Translations under genes and position numbers: made by a program
Part shown: one piece after another, positions 11,067 to 61,666 of the stretch
Layout: every line of letters begins with the position of its first letter
Position numbering within the stretch: the first letter of the stretch is position 1
Notes under the pieces: generated by a model
What the model saw: only the letters and a program-made list of their open reading frames with translations
Told to the model about the DNA's origin: nothing
Database searches by the model: none
DNA from: Promethearchaeota archaeon
GTDB taxonomy: Archaea; Asgardarchaeota; Lokiarchaeia; Sigyniarchaeales; SOKP01
DNA length: 64,000 nt
Assembly (NCBI GenBank): GCA_019894975.1
Contig: JAGXNO010000007.1
Coordinates: forward strand, 30,270-94,269
Reading direction: 5' to 3'

Positions 11067-14033
11067 TTGAAATTATTCTTTTATAGACTCCAAAGACATA
11101 TAAATCTACAATTTTTCAAGCATTCTTGGCTTGATCTAAAACGTGATAAAAATAAAGCAATATTCGGGGTATCAGGAATAGCAATTTCTTTATTTTTATT
11201 AACTGTTATAGGAATGCTTAATGATACAGTTAATTATAATTATTTGTTATATGTAACTTCTACTACGGGGAAAGCAGATATAATGATTACTAAAACCATT
11301 CAAACGGATTTAACATTTAATCCCTTTTTTGAAGAAGATATGATAGAAGATGATCTTAATAATATCGATGGTGTGGAAGAATTTTTTCCACGTATTATGA
11401 TGTTAGTAAAAACATCTTCAGATTTTACTACTTTAAGTGGTTTCCTTCAATTATATGGAATTGATTTTGAAAAAGAAGCAGAAAATGGTAAGATTGGAGA
11501 TTTAATAATTGTTGATAATTATGGAGAGGAGATAGGAGAAAATTACAATGATAAACCAAATATAGGAGAGTGTGTAATCCTGTGGAATGTGGCTGAGATT
11601 TTGAATGTAACTAGGGGAGATGATATTTATATTGAATATCAGAATGAGCAATTAAGTTTAACTGTTATTGAAATATGCATTCAAGATTTAAAATTCATGC
11701 AATTTGAAAATTCGCTCCTTCTAGTTAACTTAATAGAAGCTCAGTCATTTCTAAACAAACCTGGCCAAATCAATTTTATTGTAGGGACAATTCAAAATCC
11801 AAAGAGTATTTATGATGCTAGTAACATAGATCGTACAACGCGAAGATTAAGGAGAATTAGTGCTAACATACAAGATAACCTTAATATTAATGAATTTAGC
11901 ATAACTCTTCCGAAATTAGAAGAACTTGAGGGAGGAGAATTCTTATTAATGACAGTTACCATAATCTTTTGGTTTATTACCATTCTTTCGATGATTATTA
12001 CAGCCATTTTAATAAATAGTATCCTTTCAACCTCTGTTGAAGAAAGAGTTCGAGAATTCGGGATTGTTCGTGTAGTAGGTGGGAAAAAATTATATACCTT
12101 GAAAATGGTACTCTTTGAAGGATTGATGTTAGGCTTTATAGGATCAGTAATAGGTATGATTCTCGGTGTTTCTTTTATTAGACCAATAGCCCAAAGTCTA
12201 CTAAAATTATACAATTTTAATTTTAGCTTTTCTGATATAGATTGGGTAATAAAACCTCAAACCATTTATATAACATTTGCAATTGGAACAGGAGTTTCTT
12301 TAATCGTTGCATTATTGCCTGCTCTAAAAACAGCAAAAATAAACTTGATTAAATCAATTTCTCCTTTTAGAGCAAAAGAAGAAGGTTGGGAAATTAAAAA
12401 AGAAGGTAGTGTCAATGTGAAGAGTTTCCTTGTAGGGATAGCTATATCTACAATCGGAATGATTGTTTTTATATTAATTCCAAATATATTCGTCACAGGC
12501 GATTTTATGTTAACGTCTTCGTTATTTGTAGGCTTACTGGGAGCAGTATTACTGGGTTTGGTTTTTGCTTCTATAGGAATAGTTCCATTAGTTCAAAAAA
12601 TCTTTCTAGGTCTTTTTTCTCCATTTATTAAGAAATATAAAAATATTATCGGTATCTCCCTTAAAAGATATAGAAGGCGTAATACAAGCACTGTTCTTAT
12701 GTTTGCTATAAGTTTCTCATTTATTTTCTTCATTACAAGTGTAACAGAGATGGAATCTGAAAATATGGCATTAAACTTAAAATTTCAATATGGTTCAGAT
12801 TTAGTTTTATTAAATCAGGAATTATATGATGAGGAAAGTGCTTTAACTTTAGAAATGATTGATGAGCTCAGAAGTTTACCTGGAATCGATGAGGTTGCAA
12901 TGTCGCTTCATAATACATTTGATTTTCAAGCCGCATTATCGGCAATTTTCGATATAAGTGAAGGGCAGGTTGGGTTTAGTGGAGGAGGTGCAGAAGAAAT
13001 TTTGATGAATCTTTTTGAATTTTATGCTTCTCAAGAAGAAATGAAAATTAAAACAACTGCTGGAGACATGATGGATTTTGATGTAGTAAACGCGGGATTT
13101 ATAGGAATCAACGATGATTTTGTTGATATAATTGATCCCAACCTACTTATTTGGAAAAGTGATGGAAGTAGTACAGGGTATTCCTTTAACCAACTGTTTT
13201 CCCGAAATGATACTTGTATAATAGCGAAATCAATTGCAAGTGTAGTTGGAATTAGTGAAGTTGGGCAAAAAATACGTATTACATTTTATGATCCTGCGAA
13301 TCCTGAAAATAGTGGGTTACCATATAATTTAACTGTAGTAGGAATCTCTGGGGGAATTCCAGGTTTTTTTAATTTCAGATCCAATGAAAATTCTGCTGAA
13401 GGAGGGGGAGTTATGGTTTCATTAGACAACTATATGCGTTTAATGAAGGTTGAGAATCCTGGAGAGCCTAATATGATTGTAGACAAAGTTTTTATAAACC
13501 TACTTGATAAAACTGAAGAAAGTATTGAAGAAACAAAAGAAGACATCCGACTAATGTATCAAGATAAAGATATAACAATTGATGACGCAGTTTCTAAAAT
13601 TAATTTTATGGAAGAAATGACTGAGAGACAATCTTTCCTTATGGAGCTTATTTTATCATTCACCATAATGATAAGTATTTTTGGATTAGTAAGTAACATG
13701 TATGCAATTATGTTGGAAAGGAAATTTGAGATCGGAATACTCCGTTCGATGGGTATGAAAACTCGGAACGTAAGAAATATGTTTTTAGTTGAAAGTTTAA
13801 TTATTTTACTGAGTTCAGGTATTTTGGGCACTGTGATTGGAACATATGTTGGTTATTTACTTGAAACAAACATGGCCTTAATGACAGAAATGCCCGTAAT
13901 ATTCAAAATCCCTATAGATACTTTATTGAGAGTGTTTATAATATCCATTTCAGTAGGTATTTTGGGAATCTATTTAATTCTTATAAAATTATCAAGGCAA
14001 TCAATAATGGATATCTTTCGACAAACATTTTAG
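11067..14033 (+). CDS. FtsX/MacB-type ABC transporter permease
   Basis: SVEERVREFGIVRVVGG and MLERKFEIGILRSMGM motifs. Paralog of the first ORF (shared RYxRRNxSTV..FA.SFSF and YGSDLV motifs). Confidence 0.9.
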   Translation: MKLFFYRLQRHINLQFFKHSWLDLKRDKNKAIFGVSGIAISLFLLTVIGMLNDTVNYNYLLYVTSTTGKADIMITKTIQTDLTFNPFFEEDMIEDDLNNIDGVEEFFPRIMMLVKTSSDFTTLSGFLQLYGIDFEKEAENGKIGDLIIVDNYGEEIGENYNDKPNIGECVILWNVAEILNVTRGDDIYIEYQNEQLSLTVIEICIQDLKFMQFENSLLLVNLIEAQSFLNKPGQINFIVGTIQNPKSIYDASNIDRTTRRLRRISANIQDNLNINEFSITLPKLEELEGGEFLLMTVTIIFWFITILSMIITAILINSILSTSVEERVREFGIVRVVGGKKLYTLKMVLFEGLMLGFIGSVIGMILGVSFIRPIAQSLLKLYNFNFSFSDIDWVIKPQTIYITFAIGTGVSLIVALLPALKTAKINLIKSISPFRAKEEGWEIKKEGSVNVKSFLVGIAISTIGMIVFILIPNIFVTGDFMLTSSLFVGLLGAVLLGLVFASIGIVPLVQKIFLGLFSPFIKKYKNIIGISLKRYRRRNTSTVLMFAISFSFIFFITSVTEMESENMALNLKFQYGSDLVLLNQELYDEESALTLEMIDELRSLPGIDEVAMSLHNTFDFQAALSAIFDISEGQVGFSGGGAEEILMNLFEFYASQEEMKIKTTAGDMMDFDVVNAGFIGINDDFVDIIDPNLLIWKSDGSSTGYSFNQLFSRNDTCIIAKSIASVVGISEVGQKIRITFYDPANPENSGLPYNLTVVGISGGIPGFFNFRSNENSAEGGGVMVSLDNYMRLMKVENPGEPNMIVDKVFINLLDKTEESIEETKEDIRLMYQDKDITIDDAVSKINFMEEMTERQSFLMELILSFTIMISIFGLVSNMYAIMLERKFEIGILRSMGMKTRNVRNMFLVESLIILLSSGILGTVIGTYVGYLLETNMALMTEMPVIFKIPIDTLLRVFIISISVGILGIYLILIKLSRQSIMDIFRQTF

Positions 14034-35253: not shown

Positions 35254-36120
35254 TTAACTTTTTGCCGGAGATGCATAACAATAACCACAGTTATGTTTGC
35301 ATCGAAAGATCCCTGAATATCCTCCAATATCTTTTGATTTGAAACAACCGCAATCTTTCCTTTGACCTGTATCTCTTATTATCGGAATCTTCTCATTAAT
35401 AATTCCTCCAATTTTTTTTGCATCGATACAGTGTGCTTGTTCAATACCTTCAATGCCCAATAACTCAGGTTGACAACAGGCATTCATTTGAATATCATAA
35501 TCATTACAGATCTTGATTAATCTTAATAAAATTTCCCTTTTTTCTTGTAAAGGCAGATCAACCGGGATATATCCTCTTGCTTTCATCCTGTTTTTAACCT
35601 TAGGATATAGCGTTGCGAAGGAAAATATAAGGTTCTTAATTCCAAGATTAGATACACCCTTGATTATATATTCAAATTCATCAAGATTATTTTGAATTTT
35701 GGTTGAACCCATTCTTTTGTAAAAGATTATAGGATCATATCTATAATTTATATTTGATACTCCAAATTCATTTATTAACCATTCTAACTGATGGAATCGT
35801 TCTCCAATTGAGACATTTAAGTTCTTTTCTAATTCTGATGGAGAATTGATTGTAAATTGAAAAAAGTGTCCCTTATATGATTGGAATAGTGCTTTATTCT
35901 CAAGGTATTGCTTAATCCATTCTTTAAAATTTTTACTCCACCATACAAAGCATCTTACCATTTTGGGTTCTAATGAAACTCTAGAAATCTGTTTACGATT
36001 AAATGGATTAACTACATCAACATGCTTCGCCTTAATCCTTTCAATTATCCAATCCATTAAAAAAGCGGGAATATCTGTTCTACGCGAACATGATATAATT
36101 GAAGGTTCAACAATATTCAT
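35254..36120 (-). CDS. DUF1848 family protein
   Basis: IISCSRRTDIPAF, RYDPI, CID, GQRKDCGC..SKDIG.Y and C.H.C.YCYA. Confidence 0.9.
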   Translation of the reverse strand: MNIVEPSIISCSRRTDIPAFLMDWIIERIKAKHVDVVNPFNRKQISRVSLEPKMVRCFVWWSKNFKEWIKQYLENKALFQSYKGHFFQFTINSPSELEKNLNVSIGERFHQLEWLINEFGVSNINYRYDPIIFYKRMGSTKIQNNLDEFEYIIKGVSNLGIKNLIFSFATLYPKVKNRMKARGYIPVDLPLQEKREILLRLIKICNDYDIQMNACCQPELLGIEGIEQAHCIDAKKIGGIINEKIPIIRDTGQRKDCGCFKSKDIGGYSGIFRCKHNCGYCYASPAKS

Positions 36121-54512: not shown

Positions 54513-54605
54513 TATTGAATTTTCAGATAATTTAGTAAGGATTATCATAAATCTCTATTCTAAATTGGACTTGATTTTAGACATAATTTTTTTAGGATTT
54601 TGTTG

Positions 54606-54631
54606 AAAATTGGTCTTTATACCTTTATAGG
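54606..54631 (+). promoter_or_regulatory. Module promoter copy 1 (GGTC-N8-TATA)
   Basis: AAAATTGGTC-TTTATACC-TTTATAGG, about 40 nt upstream of ORF 54670; same spacing as three other copies. Confidence 0.55.
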
Positions 54632-54669: not shown

Positions 54670-55140
54670 TTGTGTGAAAGAATTTTGGATAAGAGCTCCC
54701 TGATTTACAGTACCTTAGTTAATTTCATTATTGGTAAATTACCTAATTTCATACTTCTTCCAGTTTTAGATATAATATATCATTTTTATAGAATTAAATT
54801 TATTAAAAGGCAGATTAACAAAAGAATCGGTACCTTAGAGTTAATAGAATCAATCGTCCTAACTTATGACAGGATAGCAATCAAGAGAAATGACGCAAAC
54901 TTAAACTTATTAAATTTTCATCGAAATTTTAATAAAAAGGTAAATCGCTCATTATTAAAAGATAATTTACAATTATATTTATTAAGAAACTTGCTTTATA
55001 GAATTCTTAATAAGTGTCTAACTCAAGACAAAATTAGGAAATTAGTAAAAATGGAAATCCTGAAAGCACCGGAGAAGACCTTCTCAGATTTTATAGATCT
55101 TTTTAATGAATTGAGAAGGGAATTAAAGACTATAAACTAA
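54670..55140 (+). CDS. Hypothetical protein
   Basis: 156-aa ORF with a non-ATG start, directly downstream of the promoter motif and upstream of the wHTH gene; no recognisable motifs. Confidence 0.45.
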   Translation: MCERILDKSSLIYSTLVNFIIGKLPNFILLPVLDIIYHFYRIKFIKRQINKRIGTLELIESIVLTYDRIAIKRNDANLNLLNFHRNFNKKVNRSLLKDNLQLYLLRNLLYRILNKCLTQDKIRKLVKMEILKAPEKTFSDFIDLFNELRRELKTIN

Positions 55141-55191: not shown

Positions 55192-55932
55192 ATGAAAACT
55201 GAGTTTTTTTTTGAACCAATTGGAGAGGATCATCCAAGTGTTAAAAATGTTTTAGAAATAGCAGAAGAAATCATGAATAAAAACAAGGTATTAAATGTTG
55301 AAAACCTTTATAATATAGCCAAAAAACGATTGAAACTACCCCGAAATGGGCTTTTATCAATAATCCAATTTTTAATTAATAAAAAACTATTGATCGAAGG
55401 TTCGAAGTTTTCTAGAGAATCGGTTCTTTCAAATCACATTCGGAATGGAATTTTAAACTATATTAATAAGCATCCAGGAGTTCATTTTTCGGATTTGAGA
55501 AAAAGGGCTTTACCTGAGGAGATGGGAAGCTCAGGACAATTAGTATGGCATCTAGAAATGCTCCTTAAATTTAATTATATTAATAAGATTAAGGTTGGCA
55601 ATTATACCGTCTTTCTTCCGTACGATATGGATGAGGCCGAAGGAAGAACTATGTTTATGCTAAGAGATCGGATTAATTTCAAAGTAATTGAACTGCTTCT
55701 TAAGGAGAATACTGAAGCAAAATCTGAGATTTATAAAGCAATCAATGAAAAAAGAGAAGATGTCTATTATCGAATTAATAATTTATTAGATCTAAGAATC
55801 ATAATTGAAAATCCTAAATCAGTTAAAGAATTATGCATTAATCCAAATTTCAAGGAAAAAATTAGTGAATTATTCGAAACAACAAAATTATATATTGAGA
55901 AGAATTTATCTAGCAAAGAGGAAGAGGTTTAA
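55192..55932 (+). CDS. Multi-winged-helix transcriptional regulator
   Basis: RNGILNYINKHPGVHFSDL..GQLVWHLEML tandem wHTH pattern and a second VYYRINNL unit. Confidence 0.8.
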   Translation: MKTEFFFEPIGEDHPSVKNVLEIAEEIMNKNKVLNVENLYNIAKKRLKLPRNGLLSIIQFLINKKLLIEGSKFSRESVLSNHIRNGILNYINKHPGVHFSDLRKRALPEEMGSSGQLVWHLEMLLKFNYINKIKVGNYTVFLPYDMDEAEGRTMFMLRDRINFKVIELLLKENTEAKSEIYKAINEKREDVYYRINNLLDLRIIIENPKSVKELCINPNFKEKISELFETTKLYIEKNLSSKEEEV

Positions 55933-55934
55933 GG

Positions 55935-57251
55935 ATGGTATTAAATTGGAATATCGAGGTAATTTTAGATTTTATTTTTTCATTTATAATCTTAATTACT
56001 GCCTTCGTAAGTTTTATAGCCCCTAAGACTAAGAAAATCACATCCTTGTTTTATTTTCGATTAGTATTTTTAGCTTTTAGCGTTTTCTTTGTTTTTGATG
56101 GTTTGTCAATTCTTTTTATAAGCCCTTTCTTTTCTCGAATTAGCGGTATAATTCTGTTACCTCTTACTTTACTCGTTATTATAAGTATAAATTACACTTT
56201 TAGAGAAGATTATTACTCGCTAGGGCTAATAATATTTTGTGGTTTAGGAGTTTTATTAGTCTATGTAGGATTACAACCAGATTCTGTTGGAGTCTCCACA
56301 TATCTTGGTTACCCTAGAATCGATTGGAGAGGTTTGTTTAACATACTGGGAATATTGTTCAGCGGTGTAGTTTCATTTTATTTATTATATTGGGGAACAA
56401 AAACTTATTTAAAAGCTCCATTTTTAATTAAAAAGGATGCAACCATACTATTTTTAGGTATTTTATTTGCGTCAGTACTAGGAATGTTGTTTTATTTTTT
56501 GTATGTCTTTGAACCAGTTTATATTTTATTTTCCAATCTTTCAATAATCATAGGTCTTGTAGTTTTTACGATAGCTATAATAAGAGAGCCAAAACTTTTA
56601 TATATACTTCCTTTCACGGTCTTCAGAATTGTAGTAAAAGATCGTGAAGGTCGTCCTCTGTTTGATCATGATTGGTCTGAATCTAATATTAGTGAAAGGA
56701 TATTCACAGGTTTCTTAAATGCAGTACAACTCATGAGTGAAGAGGTAATGCATATTGGGGGATTATTAGATATTAACTTAGAGGAAGGAATTTTAATTTT
56801 AAAAGAATCTGATAAAACAACAGTTGGATTAGTTGCTTCAAAATCTTCAAAACTATTAAGAGATTCAGTAGTAAGTTTTACAACTGCTTTCGAAAAAAAA
56901 TTCGATCGAGAATTAAAAGCATCTGTCTCTGATATGTCCGCATATGAACCGGCGTATGAACTCATTGAAAAATATTTCTCTAATTTTCCATATAAAATAA
57001 TTAAGAATAAAAAACAACCACTTCTTCTATCAGGTAAATATCTTAGAATTCCCCCAGAGTTAGATAATAAACTTAGAAGTGTGATTACAGATGAGAAAGA
57101 ATATGAAGCTATAAAAGCAGAATTAATAAAATCTCCCCTCTCAATGCCCTCTGATTTCTTTAAATCTTATTCTGAAATGAAAGAAGAATTAGAGCAAATT
57201 TCTGGAAAGGAAACAAAATATTTAGATACAGATTCTAATGAAGATAAGTGA
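55935..57251 (+). CDS. Seven-TM membrane protein with cytoplasmic longin-like domain
   Basis: About seven hydrophobic helices ending at IIREPKLLYILPF, then RIVVKDREGRPLFDHDW..IFTGFLNAVQLMSEEV. Confidence 0.7.
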   Translation: MVLNWNIEVILDFIFSFIILITAFVSFIAPKTKKITSLFYFRLVFLAFSVFFVFDGLSILFISPFFSRISGIILLPLTLLVIISINYTFREDYYSLGLIIFCGLGVLLVYVGLQPDSVGVSTYLGYPRIDWRGLFNILGILFSGVVSFYLLYWGTKTYLKAPFLIKKDATILFLGILFASVLGMLFYFLYVFEPVYILFSNLSIIIGLVVFTIAIIREPKLLYILPFTVFRIVVKDREGRPLFDHDWSESNISERIFTGFLNAVQLMSEEVMHIGGLLDINLEEGILILKESDKTTVGLVASKSSKLLRDSVVSFTTAFEKKFDRELKASVSDMSAYEPAYELIEKYFSNFPYKIIKNKKQPLLLSGKYLRIPPELDNKLRSVITDEKEYEAIKAELIKSPLSMPSDFFKSYSEMKEELEQISGKETKYLDTDSNEDK

Positions 57252-57323
57252 TCTTTATTCAATTATGATGTTTTAAATTAAATCCTCATATTTGAAATCT
57301 TTAGGAAACTGAAAAAAATTGTA

Positions 57324-57540
57324 AAAATTTGGTCCTAATTCATTTAAATATACTGAAGATATAATGAATAATATCATAGTTTTATGATTATTTATTGGGA
57401 GAATTGTGCGAAGTCTAATGTTTTCAAAAAGATAAGTGGGAATTCTAGAAAGGTAGTCAAATTATTTCCCGTTTCTAGGGTTTAATTTGTATCTCACTTT
57501 TTTTGAAGAACAAGTTAATTAATTAGTTTCATTCATATAA
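57324..57540 (+). ncRNA. Non-coding repeat copy A: promoter plus candidate structured RNA
   Basis: Promoter at 57324-57350 followed by nested stems; homologous to 60813-61026 with compensatory changes. Confidence 0.6.
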
Positions 57541-57585
57541 GAAATCCAGAGATTGAGCCCAATTAAGTTTATAATTCAATTTGTT

Positions 57586-57612
57586 AAAATTTGGTCCTAG
57601 TCAATTTATAAA
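57586..57612 (+). promoter_or_regulatory. Module promoter copy 3, upstream of the tail-fibre-like gene
   Basis: AAAATTTGGTC-CTAGTCAA-TTTATAAA, 57 nt upstream of the ATG at 57670. Confidence 0.65.
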
Positions 57613-57669
57613 GACTAAAATGTTAGTAATTTTAAAATCTAATTTAAAAAAATAAAAAGTGATATAACA

Positions 57670-60600
57670 ATGTATAAAAACAAAATGAATAATAAGAAAT
57701 TTCTAAGCATATTGATACTTTGTCTCTTATTCTTTCCCCTTACCTTCTGGATGAATCCTGGATTTATTCGTAAAGACATAAACAATAATCTAAGAACTAG
57801 TCAATATGAATCAGATGGTCTAATTGCATTGTGGTCTGGACCCTTAAATACAATCCCAGCGGGGTGGAAACTGTGTAATGGTACCGATGGCACCATAGAC
57901 ACAACTAATCTTTTTGCTTATAGTACTGATAGTGGAGAAGCACCTGGAGACACAGGTGGTGATACAACACATAGTCATATTTACGAAACGGTACCTAGCC
58001 ACGATCATGGTGTAACTGGTACAACATATACTCCACACAGTCACACCTATCTACGACCACTTACTTACTGGCACATGGGCACGACATTATGGCCATACAA
58101 CGCTTTAGGTACTGGCACCAGCTCTACTGGTGCTGATTCTGCATCGCATAATCATGGTGGGTATACCAGCTATACAGGTCCCACACCACCTCTTTATACG
58201 GCTGAAGAAGAAAATATCCCACCCTATTACGAGATGGCATTTATCGAGAAGGAAGCAGATGATACTGCTATTCCTAGTGACCTGATTGTAATGTGGGGAG
58301 GTGATATAAGTTCTATTCCTGCAGGGTGGGAACTTTGCAATGGATCGAACGGTACACCTGATCTTCGAGATAAATTCATTCGGGGAGCCCCTCCAGGGGA
58401 AGATCCTGGAACGTTAGGTGGAACTATAGCCCATGATCACACATATACCCAAATTCCTCGACATAGACATACTATTGATTCTGGAGGTTCCTCTCATAGC
58501 CATGGAGGAGTTGCAGTGAACTCTCGCGCAGTGGGTGCTCTGATATGGACGGGAGCGACTTATATTAGAGGTTCTGGCTATACTAATTATGGTGGTTATA
58601 CTCACACACATTCTGTACCCACAATTGGGTTAACGACTAGCACAACTGCGAATACAAACAACCAACCCCCCTACTTCAAGGTTGCGTTCATAATGAATAC
58701 AGTAGTAACCGAGAATTTACCGTTGGGAGCTATTAGTATGTGGGGAGATTCAATAGCGAACATACCCTCAGGTTGGAATCAATGCACTGGAACAAGTGGT
58801 ACACCTAACATGCTTGAAAGATTTCCAAAAGGTGTAGCAACTGGAGAACAACCTGGACTTATTGGTGGAAACCCCACTCATCGTCATACCTATACGGCGG
58901 TTCCCCTACATACACACACTATTCCAACTGATCCGATGAATCATCGACACAGCATATATAGAGTAGGCGGTACAGAAACTTCACCCGATGGGTCTTTAGA
59001 CTGTTGGTGGCGTGATGATGGATATACTTCCACAACAGCTTCTAGTAATCCTTCTCATAATCATGACATAAATCCTTTCGGTTCTACACCATGTTATACT
59101 GCGTATGATAATAGTCTTCCCTCATATGTTAAGCTCATTTATATACAAAAGGGTCAATCTACAGGGAATCCAACTCCTGCAAATGGAGCTACAGATATCA
59201 ACTATAACCCTACATTATCTGTGTTTGTAATTGACTTAGAAGGAGATGATTTAACCGTGTCATTTTATGATGCTTCTGATGATAGCCTAATAGGCTCAGA
59301 CATTGTTACAGGTGGGAATGGCACAGCTTCAGAAATCTGGTCGGACCTCTCAAGTGATACGGTCTATTCGTGGTATATAAAAACTGACGATGGGGGACCT
59401 TTAGTTCAATCTGCTACATGGTCATTTACTACAAATTACGAGCCTGATGCCCCCACAAACCCAACTCCTAATGATGGGGCTACAGATATTAATTTCAACC
59501 CTACATTAAGCGTGGACGTATTTGATAACGACGGAGATATTATGAACGTGTCGTTTTATGATGCTTCTGATGATAGCCTAATAGGATGGGAATATATTTT
59601 TGGAGGTAGCGGTACAGCTTCAGCAACCTGGTCGGGACTCACAAATGATACGATCTTTTCATGGTATGCAAAATCCGATGATGGGTTAAGTATAGTTCAA
59701 TCTGCTACATGGTCATTTACTACAAATTACGCGCCCGATGTTCCCATAAATCCAACTCCTAGTGATGGGGCTATTGATGTTAATTACAGCCCTACATTAA
59801 GCGTGGATGTATTTGATAATGATGGAGATGATTTGACTGTGTCATTTTATAATGCTTCTGATGATAGTCTAATTGATTCTGAGCTTGTTATTGGAGGGAA
59901 CGGTACCGCCTATGTATTGTGGTCAGGATTATTGCCGGGAAACATCCATTCATGGTATACTACAGCTTATGATGGGTTAAACATAGGACAATCTGCTACA
60001 TGGTCATTTACTACAAATTACGAGCCTGATGCCCCCACAAACCCAACTCCTAATGATGGGGCTACTGATATTAGTGACGACCCTACCCTAAGCGTGGACG
60101 TATTTGATTTCGACGGAGATATTATGAACGTGTCGTTTTATGATGCTTCTGATGATAGCTTAATTGATTCTGAGCTTATTTTAGGAGGGAGCGGTACCGC
60201 TTCGGTAACCTGGACGGGACTCTCAAGTATTACGCCCTATTCATGGTACGCAATATCCGATGATGGGTTAAGTGCAATTCAATCTGCTACATGGTCATTT
60301 ACTACTGGGGAATGGATAGAAAATCACCTGCCACAAGTGACAAACCCAACTCCTAATAATGGGGCTACTGATATTGGTGACGACCCTACCCTAAGCGTGG
60401 ACGTATTTGATGAAGACGGGGATACCGTAACAGTAACATTTTATAATGCATCCGATAATAGTGAAATAGGCTCAGACATTGTTACAGGCGGGAGTGGAAC
60501 AGCTTCAGTAACCTGGTCGGGAGTAACAAGTGATATGGTCTGTCAATGGTATGTTAGAGCTAATGATGGGAAGGGTGCAACAGAATCTGCAACATGGACA

Positions 60601-60732
60601 TTTTTAACTACTGTTACTAGTACACCTCCTGGTATTCCACTACTCGGTTTAGTTCCATTAGGCTTAATCGTAATCGGAACAACAGGGATACTATCTGTGA
60701 TAACTTATCTGAGACGCAAAAGACTAGAGTGA
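57670..60732 (+). CDS. Cell-surface protein: signal peptide, three phage tail-collar/fibre domains, five Ig/FN3-like repeats and a C-terminal sorting/TM anchor
   Basis: Three copies of I.MW.G....IP.GW..C.G..GTP.L...F..G with HxH motifs and a PPY...FI closing motif; five ~97-aa repeats; PGIP-hydrophobic-RRKR tail. Confidence 0.85.
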   Translation: MYKNKMNNKKFLSILILCLLFFPLTFWMNPGFIRKDINNNLRTSQYESDGLIALWSGPLNTIPAGWKLCNGTDGTIDTTNLFAYSTDSGEAPGDTGGDTTHSHIYETVPSHDHGVTGTTYTPHSHTYLRPLTYWHMGTTLWPYNALGTGTSSTGADSASHNHGGYTSYTGPTPPLYTAEEENIPPYYEMAFIEKEADDTAIPSDLIVMWGGDISSIPAGWELCNGSNGTPDLRDKFIRGAPPGEDPGTLGGTIAHDHTYTQIPRHRHTIDSGGSSHSHGGVAVNSRAVGALIWTGATYIRGSGYTNYGGYTHTHSVPTIGLTTSTTANTNNQPPYFKVAFIMNTVVTENLPLGAISMWGDSIANIPSGWNQCTGTSGTPNMLERFPKGVATGEQPGLIGGNPTHRHTYTAVPLHTHTIPTDPMNHRHSIYRVGGTETSPDGSLDCWWRDDGYTSTTASSNPSHNHDINPFGSTPCYTAYDNSLPSYVKLIYIQKGQSTGNPTPANGATDINYNPTLSVFVIDLEGDDLTVSFYDASDDSLIGSDIVTGGNGTASEIWSDLSSDTVYSWYIKTDDGGPLVQSATWSFTTNYEPDAPTNPTPNDGATDINFNPTLSVDVFDNDGDIMNVSFYDASDDSLIGWEYIFGGSGTASATWSGLTNDTIFSWYAKSDDGLSIVQSATWSFTTNYAPDVPINPTPSDGAIDVNYSPTLSVDVFDNDGDDLTVSFYNASDDSLIDSELVIGGNGTAYVLWSGLLPGNIHSWYTTAYDGLNIGQSATWSFTTNYEPDAPTNPTPNDGATDISDDPTLSVDVFDFDGDIMNVSFYDASDDSLIDSELILGGSGTASVTWTGLSSITPYSWYAISDDGLSAIQSATWSFTTGEWIENHLPQVTNPTPNNGATDIGDDPTLSVDVFDEDGDTVTVTFYNASDNSEIGSDIVTGGSGTASVTWSGVTSDMVCQWYVRANDGKGATESATWTFLTTVTSTPPGIPLLGLVPLGLIVIGTTGILSVITYLRRKRLE
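59167..60612 (+). repeat. Five tandem intragenic repeats of about 291 bp
   Basis: CCAACTCCT anchors at 59170, 59461, 59752, 60043 and 60346 (spacings 291, 291, 291, 303). Confidence 0.92.
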
Positions 60733-60750
60733 AAATATTTTATCTAAATA

Positions 60751-60790
60751 ATTTTTTTTCTTTTTTTTATATTTCTCTTTAAATTTTTTG
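60751..60790 (+). terminator. Oligo-T archaeal terminator
   Basis: ATTTTTTTTCTTTTTTTTATATTTCTCTTT shortly after the stop at 60732. Confidence 0.6.
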
Positions 60791-60812
60791 ATAATATAAA
60801 ATTGAGATGTTT

Positions 60813-61026
60813 AAAATTGGTCCTAATGACTTTAAATATACTGAAGATATAGGGAATTATATAACAATAAATTAATATTTATTGGGAGAATTGAGCGAAA
60901 TCTAATGTTTTCAAAAATTAATGAGGAAATAAAGGAAAAATAGTAGGTATATTTCAATATTTTATTTATTATCTAATCCTCATATTTTTTGAAGAACAAG
61001 CGAATTATCTAGTTCAATTTCTATAA
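60813..61026 (+). ncRNA. Non-coding repeat copy B: promoter plus candidate structured RNA
   Basis: Promoter at 60813-60838 with the same conserved blocks and stems as copy A; no + strand gene follows it. Confidence 0.6.
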
Positions 61027-61084
61027 TTCTTATGTATTTTAACCGTAAAGAGTAACCATAAACAATTTCTATTTTTTTTTTTAC

Positions 61085-61666
61085 TTATTGTATCTTTCTC
61101 AAATAATAACCCATATCTACTAAGTTTAAAGCAATTATTTCTCCGGGGTTAAGACTTGCTAGGTCTTGTTTGTTTATCAACGACTGTGCTATTGCACAGA
61201 TTTCATTCTTCTCATTATTAATTACTAAAAAGTCATTTTTCCTTAAGTGGAAAGGGATATTTATCGCGTTGCCTTTTTTAATATCATTCCCATAAAGAAC
61301 AGATTTTTCCCCATCGATATCAATAACTAGAATATGATCCTGGATTAAGAGTTCCCTATTTAAGAGAAATTCTGCTCCTTCAAGGCTTAAACGAAAACTT
61401 TCCTTATTAAAAAAACCAAAATATAACCCAATGGAGGTAATTTGGATGTCTTTATCAAATTTTTCAATAATTTTTGGATGTTCTGGGGATAATAAAAAAA
61501 TTGAGGGATTTAAACCTCTAGAACTAGTCTTATCAAAAGAAATGTATAATCTCTCTTGATAATTTTTTATGAATATAGCAGAATTTTGACAAATTTTGTC
61601 TAGAGAATTCAATATAATAGATTTTTCGAACTCATTTAGGATTCTGAAGTCATTCCGTTCTGTCAT
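61085..61666 (-). CDS. NIP7-like pre-PUA/PUA ribosome biogenesis protein
   Basis: GLYFG..FRLSLEG, EKSVLYGNDI and NLVDMGYYLR. Confidence 0.85.
   Translation of the reverse strand: MTERNDFRILNEFEKSIILNSLDKICQNSAIFIKNYQERLYISFDKTSSRGLNPSIFLLSPEHPKIIEKFDKDIQITSIGLYFGFFNKESFRLSLEGAEFLLNRELLIQDHILVIDIDGEKSVLYGNDIKKGNAINIPFHLRKNDFLVINNEKNEICAIAQSLINKQDLASLNPGEIIALNLVDMGYYLRKIQ

Follow-up and report, generated by a model that had tools for sequence, protein, structure and literature searches.

Paired repeats beside a surface-fibre gene of a Lokiarchaeial genome: candidate genes for decoy RNAs complementary to a multicopy small RNA

The locus

The window, i.e., the whole stretch of 64,000 nucleotides that was analysed, comes from a contig of a Promethearchaeota archaeon. 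The locus of interest is Lokiarchaeial, and its genes run in the order RsmB-type methyltransferase, small ORF, tandem winged-helix protein, 438-residue membrane protein, repeat copy A, surface fibre, repeat copy B, NIP7 and ESCRT-II/Vps4. The features discussed here are as follows.

54600-54631, plus strand: operator-plus-TATA promoter before the operon of the small ORF, the winged-helix protein and the 7TM protein (matrix match, 22.7 bits)
55192-55932, plus strand: tandem winged-helix protein (PF24266), putative reader of the operator
55935-57251, plus strand: multi-pass membrane protein of 438 aa with a soluble C-terminal domain, putative sensor
57319-57350, plus strand: promoter of copy A, with an operator-like motif (57319-57342) and a TATA box (57343-57350); top match of the matrix built from relatives alone, conserved in position
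57373-57514, plus strand: predicted RNA of copy A, about 140 nt; start placed 30 nt past the TATA box from TATA spacing, end at the T-tract 57498-57504 or slightly beyond
57397-57422, plus strand: conserved core of copy A, from duplex and cofold predictions and the genome count; segment 1 (57397-57402) is predicted to form 6 bp with loop 2 of the partner RNA, and segment 2 (57408-57422) 15 bp with loop 1
57421-57509, plus strand: long 3' hairpin of copy A (z -3.1 against 300 dinucleotide shuffles), missing from many homologues
57581-57612, plus strand: operator-plus-TATA promoter before the fibre gene (matrix match, 31.8 bits; repeat family D3)
57670-60732, plus strand: surface fibre protein of 1020 aa, with a signal peptide, three tail-collar-like modules, five 97-aa repeats and a C-terminal anchor
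60807-60838, plus strand: promoter of copy B, with an operator-like motif (60807-60830) and a TATA box (60831-60838) (matrix match, 34.2 bits)
60861-61001, plus strand: predicted RNA of copy B, about 140 nt, placed by TATA spacing and directed towards the NIP7-like gene at its 3' end
60884-60909, plus strand: core of copy B, predicted to pair with the partner RNA over 60884-60889 (6 bp) and 60895-60909 (15 bp)
60908-60995, plus strand: long 3' hairpin of copy B (z -2.5 against 300 shuffles)

The initial annotation had described A and B as two same-orientation repeats of about 200 bp, and this description holds in detail. All shared blocks lie where they had been placed, with TATA at 57343 and 60831, and the distance from TATA to the 3' block is 162 nt in copy A and 160 nt in copy B. 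The two copies are 73% identical over 218 nt (BLASTN, E 5e-29). A profile built from A and B finds these two and no further copy in the assembly; a wider model adds one, on the 1.4-kb contig C35, which also holds the terminal part of another 7TM orthologue and probably belongs to a contaminating relative. In a rough tree of copies A and B are sisters; they probably arose by local duplication. The membrane protein has no match in Pfam or NCBIfam. The fibre gene is exchangeable cargo of the slot, in which relatives hold other cargo or none. Four sediment metatranscriptomes, consisting of assembled contigs of other strains in which a short diverged RNA is easily missed, cover relatives of the fibre gene and not A or B.

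Conservation of the unit and its predicted fold

Our sequence model matches 57 of the 131 genomes of one Lokiarchaeial family, some of them by the promoter only, and none of 19 genomes from three other families. Copies that bear the core number 51, in 45 genomes of the family; a search for the exact core pattern in genome contigs returned 0 matches. Two blocks are kept. One is the operator motif with its TATA box; the other, which lies about 25-50 nt past the inferred start, is a purine-rich core in two segments. The second core segment begins 63-70 nt past TATA in 42 of 50 copies and is followed by a short T-run, and the spacer between the segments (1-9 nt) and all sequence 3' of the core drift. 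Most copies, in most genomes, lie directly 3' of the membrane-protein gene. About 25 point at the end of NIP7 and precede no gene, some stand in front of the winged-helix operon, and in one genome the order is unit-cargo-unit-cargo. A MITE or the end of an insertion sequence, for which one would expect scattered copies with terminal repeats close to a transposase or moved by one, was rejected, as there are two syntenic copies that occupy the same slot across genomes.

No conserved reading frame was found in the units; a start codon follows the core in 21 of the 51 copies, opening frames of 2-43 codons, and a conserved small peptide was rejected. The proposal that A and B are promoter-driven, non-coding, stand-alone elements read from the plus strand is supported; they fall outside all Rfam families and are kept in relatives.

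The structural part of the initial annotation fared less evenly. The arms of the middle stem are present at 57434/57492 and 60921/60977, as are the inner arms of copy A at 57441/57472; pair probabilities in the middle stem are mostly 0.8-1.0 in both copies, and the long hairpins are stable when taken alone. The entire 160-nt elements are not unusually stable (z -0.87 and -1.53). For a small 5' hairpin, which had also been proposed, the pair probability stays under 0.05 in the single-sequence ensembles of both copies, and RNAalifold, run on the sequence alignment, finds no pair with two-sided change, so that the claimed covariation of the stems depends on a register chosen by hand in two sequences. 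Nor does the long stem define a family of structured RNAs, being present as a significant hairpin after the core in only 8 of 23 comparable homologues; it is missing in G005 and G023, the nearest homologues whose 3' part can still be recognised, and in G025, G034, G085 and G117. Another 23 copies form a short hairpin and end about 15 nt past the core. Judged by this distribution, the long 3' hairpin is lineage-specific, and it probably serves as a stabiliser or terminator. A fold common to the cores was sought; the consensus came out empty, and the mean z of the cores was -0.6.

These observations bear on the possibility that the units encode a stand-alone structured RNA acting by its own fold or by protein binding, with the core as a module like a T-loop or a uL1 site. 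Stable hairpins occur in A, B and six other copies of differing sequence, and the core has what we take to be a resemblance to recurring T-loop motifs and to the L1 stalk of 23S rRNA. Against this, there is no shared fold, pairing registers around the core differ among subgroups, and the match to partner variants described below is left unexplained. In a uL1-binding site an asymmetric loop is flanked by two helices, each of which has invariant G-C pairs; in the units the second helix is missing, since it finds no pairing partner in the 1-9 nt spacer, and this assignment was rejected. We regard a structured RNA of this kind as quite improbable. From the comparison of copies, the conserved feature is not the long hairpin but a single-stranded sequence complementary to another RNA.

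Promoter and putative regulator

The operator motif is common to the units, the winged-helix/7TM operon and the fibre gene. In the whole genome, the top six matches of a promoter matrix built from relatives alone are the four promoters of the locus and two on the contaminant contig with the orthologue. The same matrix marks promoters beside seven of ten other winged-helix (wHTH) loci examined, where they drive surface proteins or ABC transporters; fibre homologues that occur apart from the regulator have no operator promoter beside them. In the matrix scans the motif is confined to wHTH loci, and three genomes (G015, G020 and G111) keep the unit with no winged-helix gene nearby. On this distribution the winged-helix protein is the putative reader of the operator.

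The near-constant distance between TATA and core would also suit a DNA element, either an additional operator located past the promoter or a site at which cargo is swapped by recombination, and cargo does differ among genomes, up to the arrangement with two alternating units and cargoes. Against such an element stand the variable spacer of 1-9 nt between the segments and the strand-asymmetric substitution pattern described below, and no integrase or transposase was seen in the loci that were read. The complementary R''/R' boxes that close the bottom-strand hairpin of an integron attC site are absent by inspection, and the hairpin is not conserved; attC was rejected, and the alternative of the initial annotation, a single-stranded DNA recombination site, found no support. 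We consider a DNA element very unlikely.

A partner small RNA

When the genome was scanned with the core, the top matches were intergenic and included an RNA with nested stems on another contig.

Contig C120 of the same assembly (G000:C120:97745-97879), minus strand: partner small RNA, 135 nt

Homologs of this RNA occur in 99 of the 131 family genomes, often in multiple copies, and in 42 of the 45 genomes that bear units; it was not found in the unit-bearing G020, G103 and G123 (88-100% complete). Its architecture is two C/U-rich loops flanking an apical hairpin, and the family loop is near-invariant, with one variant in about 85 copies. All six inserts found in partner genes form an exact bulge-helix-bulge, as in tRNA-type introns, that restores the loop on the C-rich strand only, and a TATA box stands at -28 to -31 on this strand. 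Introns and TATA box fix the partner as the C-rich strand, so that the predicted plus-strand transcripts of A and B are complementary to both of its loops. The operator promoter is found at none of 66 partner copies. A search for the partner pattern in viral contigs gave 0 matches, and the Rfam 15 covariance models gave chance-level matches elsewhere and none on the partner. RNase P was rejected as a reading, because it is located elsewhere.

Complementarity between the core and the partner

Duplex and cofold predictions give, for A and B each, 15 contiguous pairs with loop 1 and six with loop 2. The duplex with loop 1 has -22.4 kcal/mol for both copies, in the top 0.01% of genome windows, and loop 1 taken alone has about 25 other genomic sites scoring equal to A and B. 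A duplex of -19 or better is predicted for 46 of the 51 copies. For full-length molecules the predicted binding is about -9 (A) and -8 (B), compared with -2.5 for shuffled cores. In 7.85 Mb, four sites match the 15-nt wobble complement of the loop (1.7 expected): A, B, the partner gene and a site attributable to chance; across the 131 genomes the pattern has 126 matches, nearly all of them in partner genes and units, and the reversed control has six.

Since likeness to the core is what led to the partner, raw complementarity is partly built in; common descent predicts it likewise. For this reason more weight falls on three tests, those of substitutions, of cognate variants and of a paralogous locus. 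Mapped on the tree, core substitutions comprise 22 C>T events at three sites against three G>A at three sites (binomial about 2e-4, overstated by tree error), and 12 A>G at five sites against three T>C at four. At the CG step the counts are 11 and 0, an imbalance that a mutation bias acting equally on both strands could not produce. The favoured substitutions are those that G-U wobble would tolerate were the plus strand paired with a partner that does not vary. The unit variant matches the partner variant of its own genome, clearly so in G085, G087, G113 and G144 and also in G152; for segment 2, cognate pairs beat permuted genomes with p 0.0002, and within one genus with p 0.001-0.006, values that overstate the significance because the tree is rough and the genomes are kin. 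Finally, the promoter matrix by itself led to a remote paralogous locus in G029; there, a complementary site of different sequence stands at an equal distance (-21.2, top 0.03%).

An alternative is that A and B themselves belong to the partner family, as decayed minus-strand copies or as the fossil remains of such copies. The best match of the partner-family profile in the window is in fact copy B (E 0.42), the units of G063 and G152 have longer stretches in common with partner genes, and both A and B have a TATA-like word on the minus strand about 26 nt beyond the 3' block. However, the units have neither the closing stems nor the apical hairpin of the family, and they vary in a direction that preserves pairing for the plus strand only, while the family loop is invariant. 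The stop codon of NIP7 lies 9-12 nt after the core in G061 and G065, leaving no room for a minus-strand promoter, and in six of eight cases the plus-strand hairpin is the more stable one. We hold this reading of the present units to be improbable.

Proposed function

We consider it somewhat probable that A and B are genes for regulator-controlled decoy (sponge) RNAs, similar to RosA and QrrX. Sponge RNAs are well documented for both bacteria and eukaryotes. As would be expected of them, computation finds in the units an own promoter, no conserved frame, and extended complementarity that is kept on both sides.

The following scheme may account for the data. The membrane protein probably controls the adjacent winged-helix regulator, which would bind the motif just upstream of the four TATA boxes in the locus and, to judge by the distribution of this motif, activate the operon that encodes it, together with the fibre gene and both RNAs. 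We infer that A and B are transcribed under this control and that the exposed purine-rich core pairs with both C/U-rich loops of the partner, bridging the apical hairpin (15 + 6 bp). Binding of the core would block the loop that the partner needs for its own targets, and these targets would be released. The unit itself was probably derived from an inverted fragment of a small-RNA gene, or from a duplicated promoter-plus-target leader, with the long hairpin as a later addition.

In another reading, the present units are 5' leaders with a target site of the partner, and A and B are functionless leaders, orphaned when cargo genes were lost after duplication. Units do lead the winged-helix operon in G085, G117, G113 and G083; a decayed core lies inside a cargo or operon leader in G003, G035 and G017; several cargo start regions resemble the 3' half of the core; and a pairing site of -14 or better accompanies 14 of 34 other operator promoters, against 2.7 expected. 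On the other hand, the core is best kept in the approximately 25 copies with no downstream gene, where the neighbouring protein is only 52-70% identical, and 23 copies, which terminate in a hairpin and T-tract, lack a start codon. Roleless leaders are, in our estimate, unlikely, and decoy RNAs are the preferred explanation.

Candidate targets of the partner

Targets of the partner may be sought among the ribosome-binding regions of slot cargo genes, which are candidates on the strength of predicted pairing: the energies computed for slot-cargo starts often fall between -14 and -17, and the median for ordinary Shine-Dalgarno genes is -10.1. The start of the fibre gene in the window pairs weakly (-10.0, rank 551 of 2976). 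No mRNA target conserved across the family was found. Genome-wide, start regions are 2.7-fold enriched at -18, and two of four shuffled loops reach about half that rate; surface proteins as a class show no enrichment among paired starts (p 0.32), and TFB start regions gave no clear match. tRNAs and RNase P RNA were rejected as targets because of weak pairing.

The 16S rRNA has two 12-bp matches to the partner (-23.3 and -20.1; -26.5 in a second genus), involving both partner loops and neighbouring stretches near helices 21-23, and as a target it is unproven, because 23S rRNA gives a chance match of -27.8 and there is no covariation. That the partner acts on the ribosome, with A and B as receptor-controlled masks carrying a membrane signal to general translation or ribosome assembly, is a very doubtful extension.

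Should the decoy model be true, the closest prokaryotic relatives of eukaryotes would own a layered circuit made of a membrane sensor, a regulator, a decoy and a multicopy small RNA, and the uncatalogued partner would gain its first concrete, predicted, binding partner. The predicted duplex is exact and testable, with natural compensatory variants at hand. In our literature search we found no report of an archaeal sponge RNA, nothing on small-RNA regulation in Lokiarchaeia, and nothing on the units or the partner.

Comparison with known systems

The Rfam 15 covariance models gave chance-level matches elsewhere and none on A or B. Guide RNAs of the box C/D and H/ACA types were rejected, there being no conserved C/D, ACA or K-turn positions. 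With respect to the partner family, the core of A and B is the opposite strand of its two loops; unlike that family, A and B have none of its stems, a different promoter and the opposite direction, which makes them a partner of the family, not a member.

The nearest functional counterparts are bacterial. RosA of Bacillus subtilis is a sponge against RoxS and FsrA that is under the control of CcpA; its two G-rich regions pair with C-rich regions of the small RNAs, as established by cross-linking and genetics (PMC8216469). A and B likewise appear to be stand-alone RNAs with two purine-rich segments under putative transcription-factor control. They differ in that the host is an Asgard archaeon, that the partner can carry tRNA-type introns, and that the whole system is deduced computationally; sequence relation between RosA and A/B is not expected. 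In Vibrio cholerae, one sponge, QrrX, pairs with the conserved sequence by which a multicopy set of small RNAs binds its targets; its gene adjoins that of its activating regulator QrrT, a LysR-type protein, and it works with Hfq and RNase E (PMC9732341). A and B resemble QrrX as a predicted sponge for a multicopy small RNA, encoded beside its putative regulator, which here is a winged-helix/7TM pair instead of a LysR-type protein.

Proposed partner RNA and other sites matching its loops

The partner of the proposed sponge-RNA genes (copies A and B, the two repeats that flank the fibre gene) is a small RNA with two C/U-rich loops complementary to the purine-rich core of both copies. It is present in 99 of the 131 family genomes, and the same partner loop is kept by divergent forms in three further genera; introns occur at two positions in this loop. 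In the source assembly (G000) the gene is located as follows.

C120, 97745-97879, minus strand: partner RNA, a 135-nt nested-stem RNA

Three further intergenic elements in this assembly include sequence that either resembles the partner loop or is complementary to it, and those on C91 and C109 are alike (pairing energies in kcal/mol).

C91, ~35290-35420: intergenic element, partner-loop match -28.0
C109, ~11700-11800: intergenic element, partner-loop match -23.3
C59, ~960: intergenic element, partner-loop match -25.9

An additional operator-type promoter (operator-like motif and TATA) is found on contig C113, at ~18865 on the minus strand; its leader has at its end a partial partner-loop match, followed by a small Cys-motif ORF. 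On C86, two large surface-protein genes (1155 and 1142 aa) start near RNase P RNA, and the start regions of both are among the best partner-loop matches (ranks 16 and 32 of 2976). In the 16S rRNA of two relatives (G098 and G141), two adjacent stretches near helices 21-23 could each form a duplex of 12-15 bp with the partner loop.

Within the window, a small ORF includes 11 consecutive nt that match partner loop 2 exactly. This ORF is similar to the tail of the 438-aa membrane protein, and in relatives it is frame-shifted or fused to the winged-helix gene.

54670-55140: small ORF preceding the winged-helix gene

Variable cargo and the fibre gene

The interval between the 438-aa membrane-protein gene and NIP7 (window 57251-61085) was compared with its equivalents in G025, G005, G023, G003, G035, G017, G030 and G156. 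Its content differs by genome, being either unrelated surface proteins, each preceded by the same promoter motif, or none. Contig C35 (1368 bp) of the source assembly, the contamination of which is 8.6%, carries the orthologous locus, where the unit is of the short type and the cargo is different; the contig probably derives from a contaminating relative.

57670-60732: fibre gene

A paralogue of this gene is found at C94:37434 of the same assembly. In three studies, contigs from RNA runs that belong to relatives span the fibre gene at 85-99% likeness, and depart from it in short segments (~58050-58175, 58475-58601 and 58869-59035) between conserved scaffolds. This pattern, differing stretches set within conserved scaffolds, resembles that of variable fibre tips.
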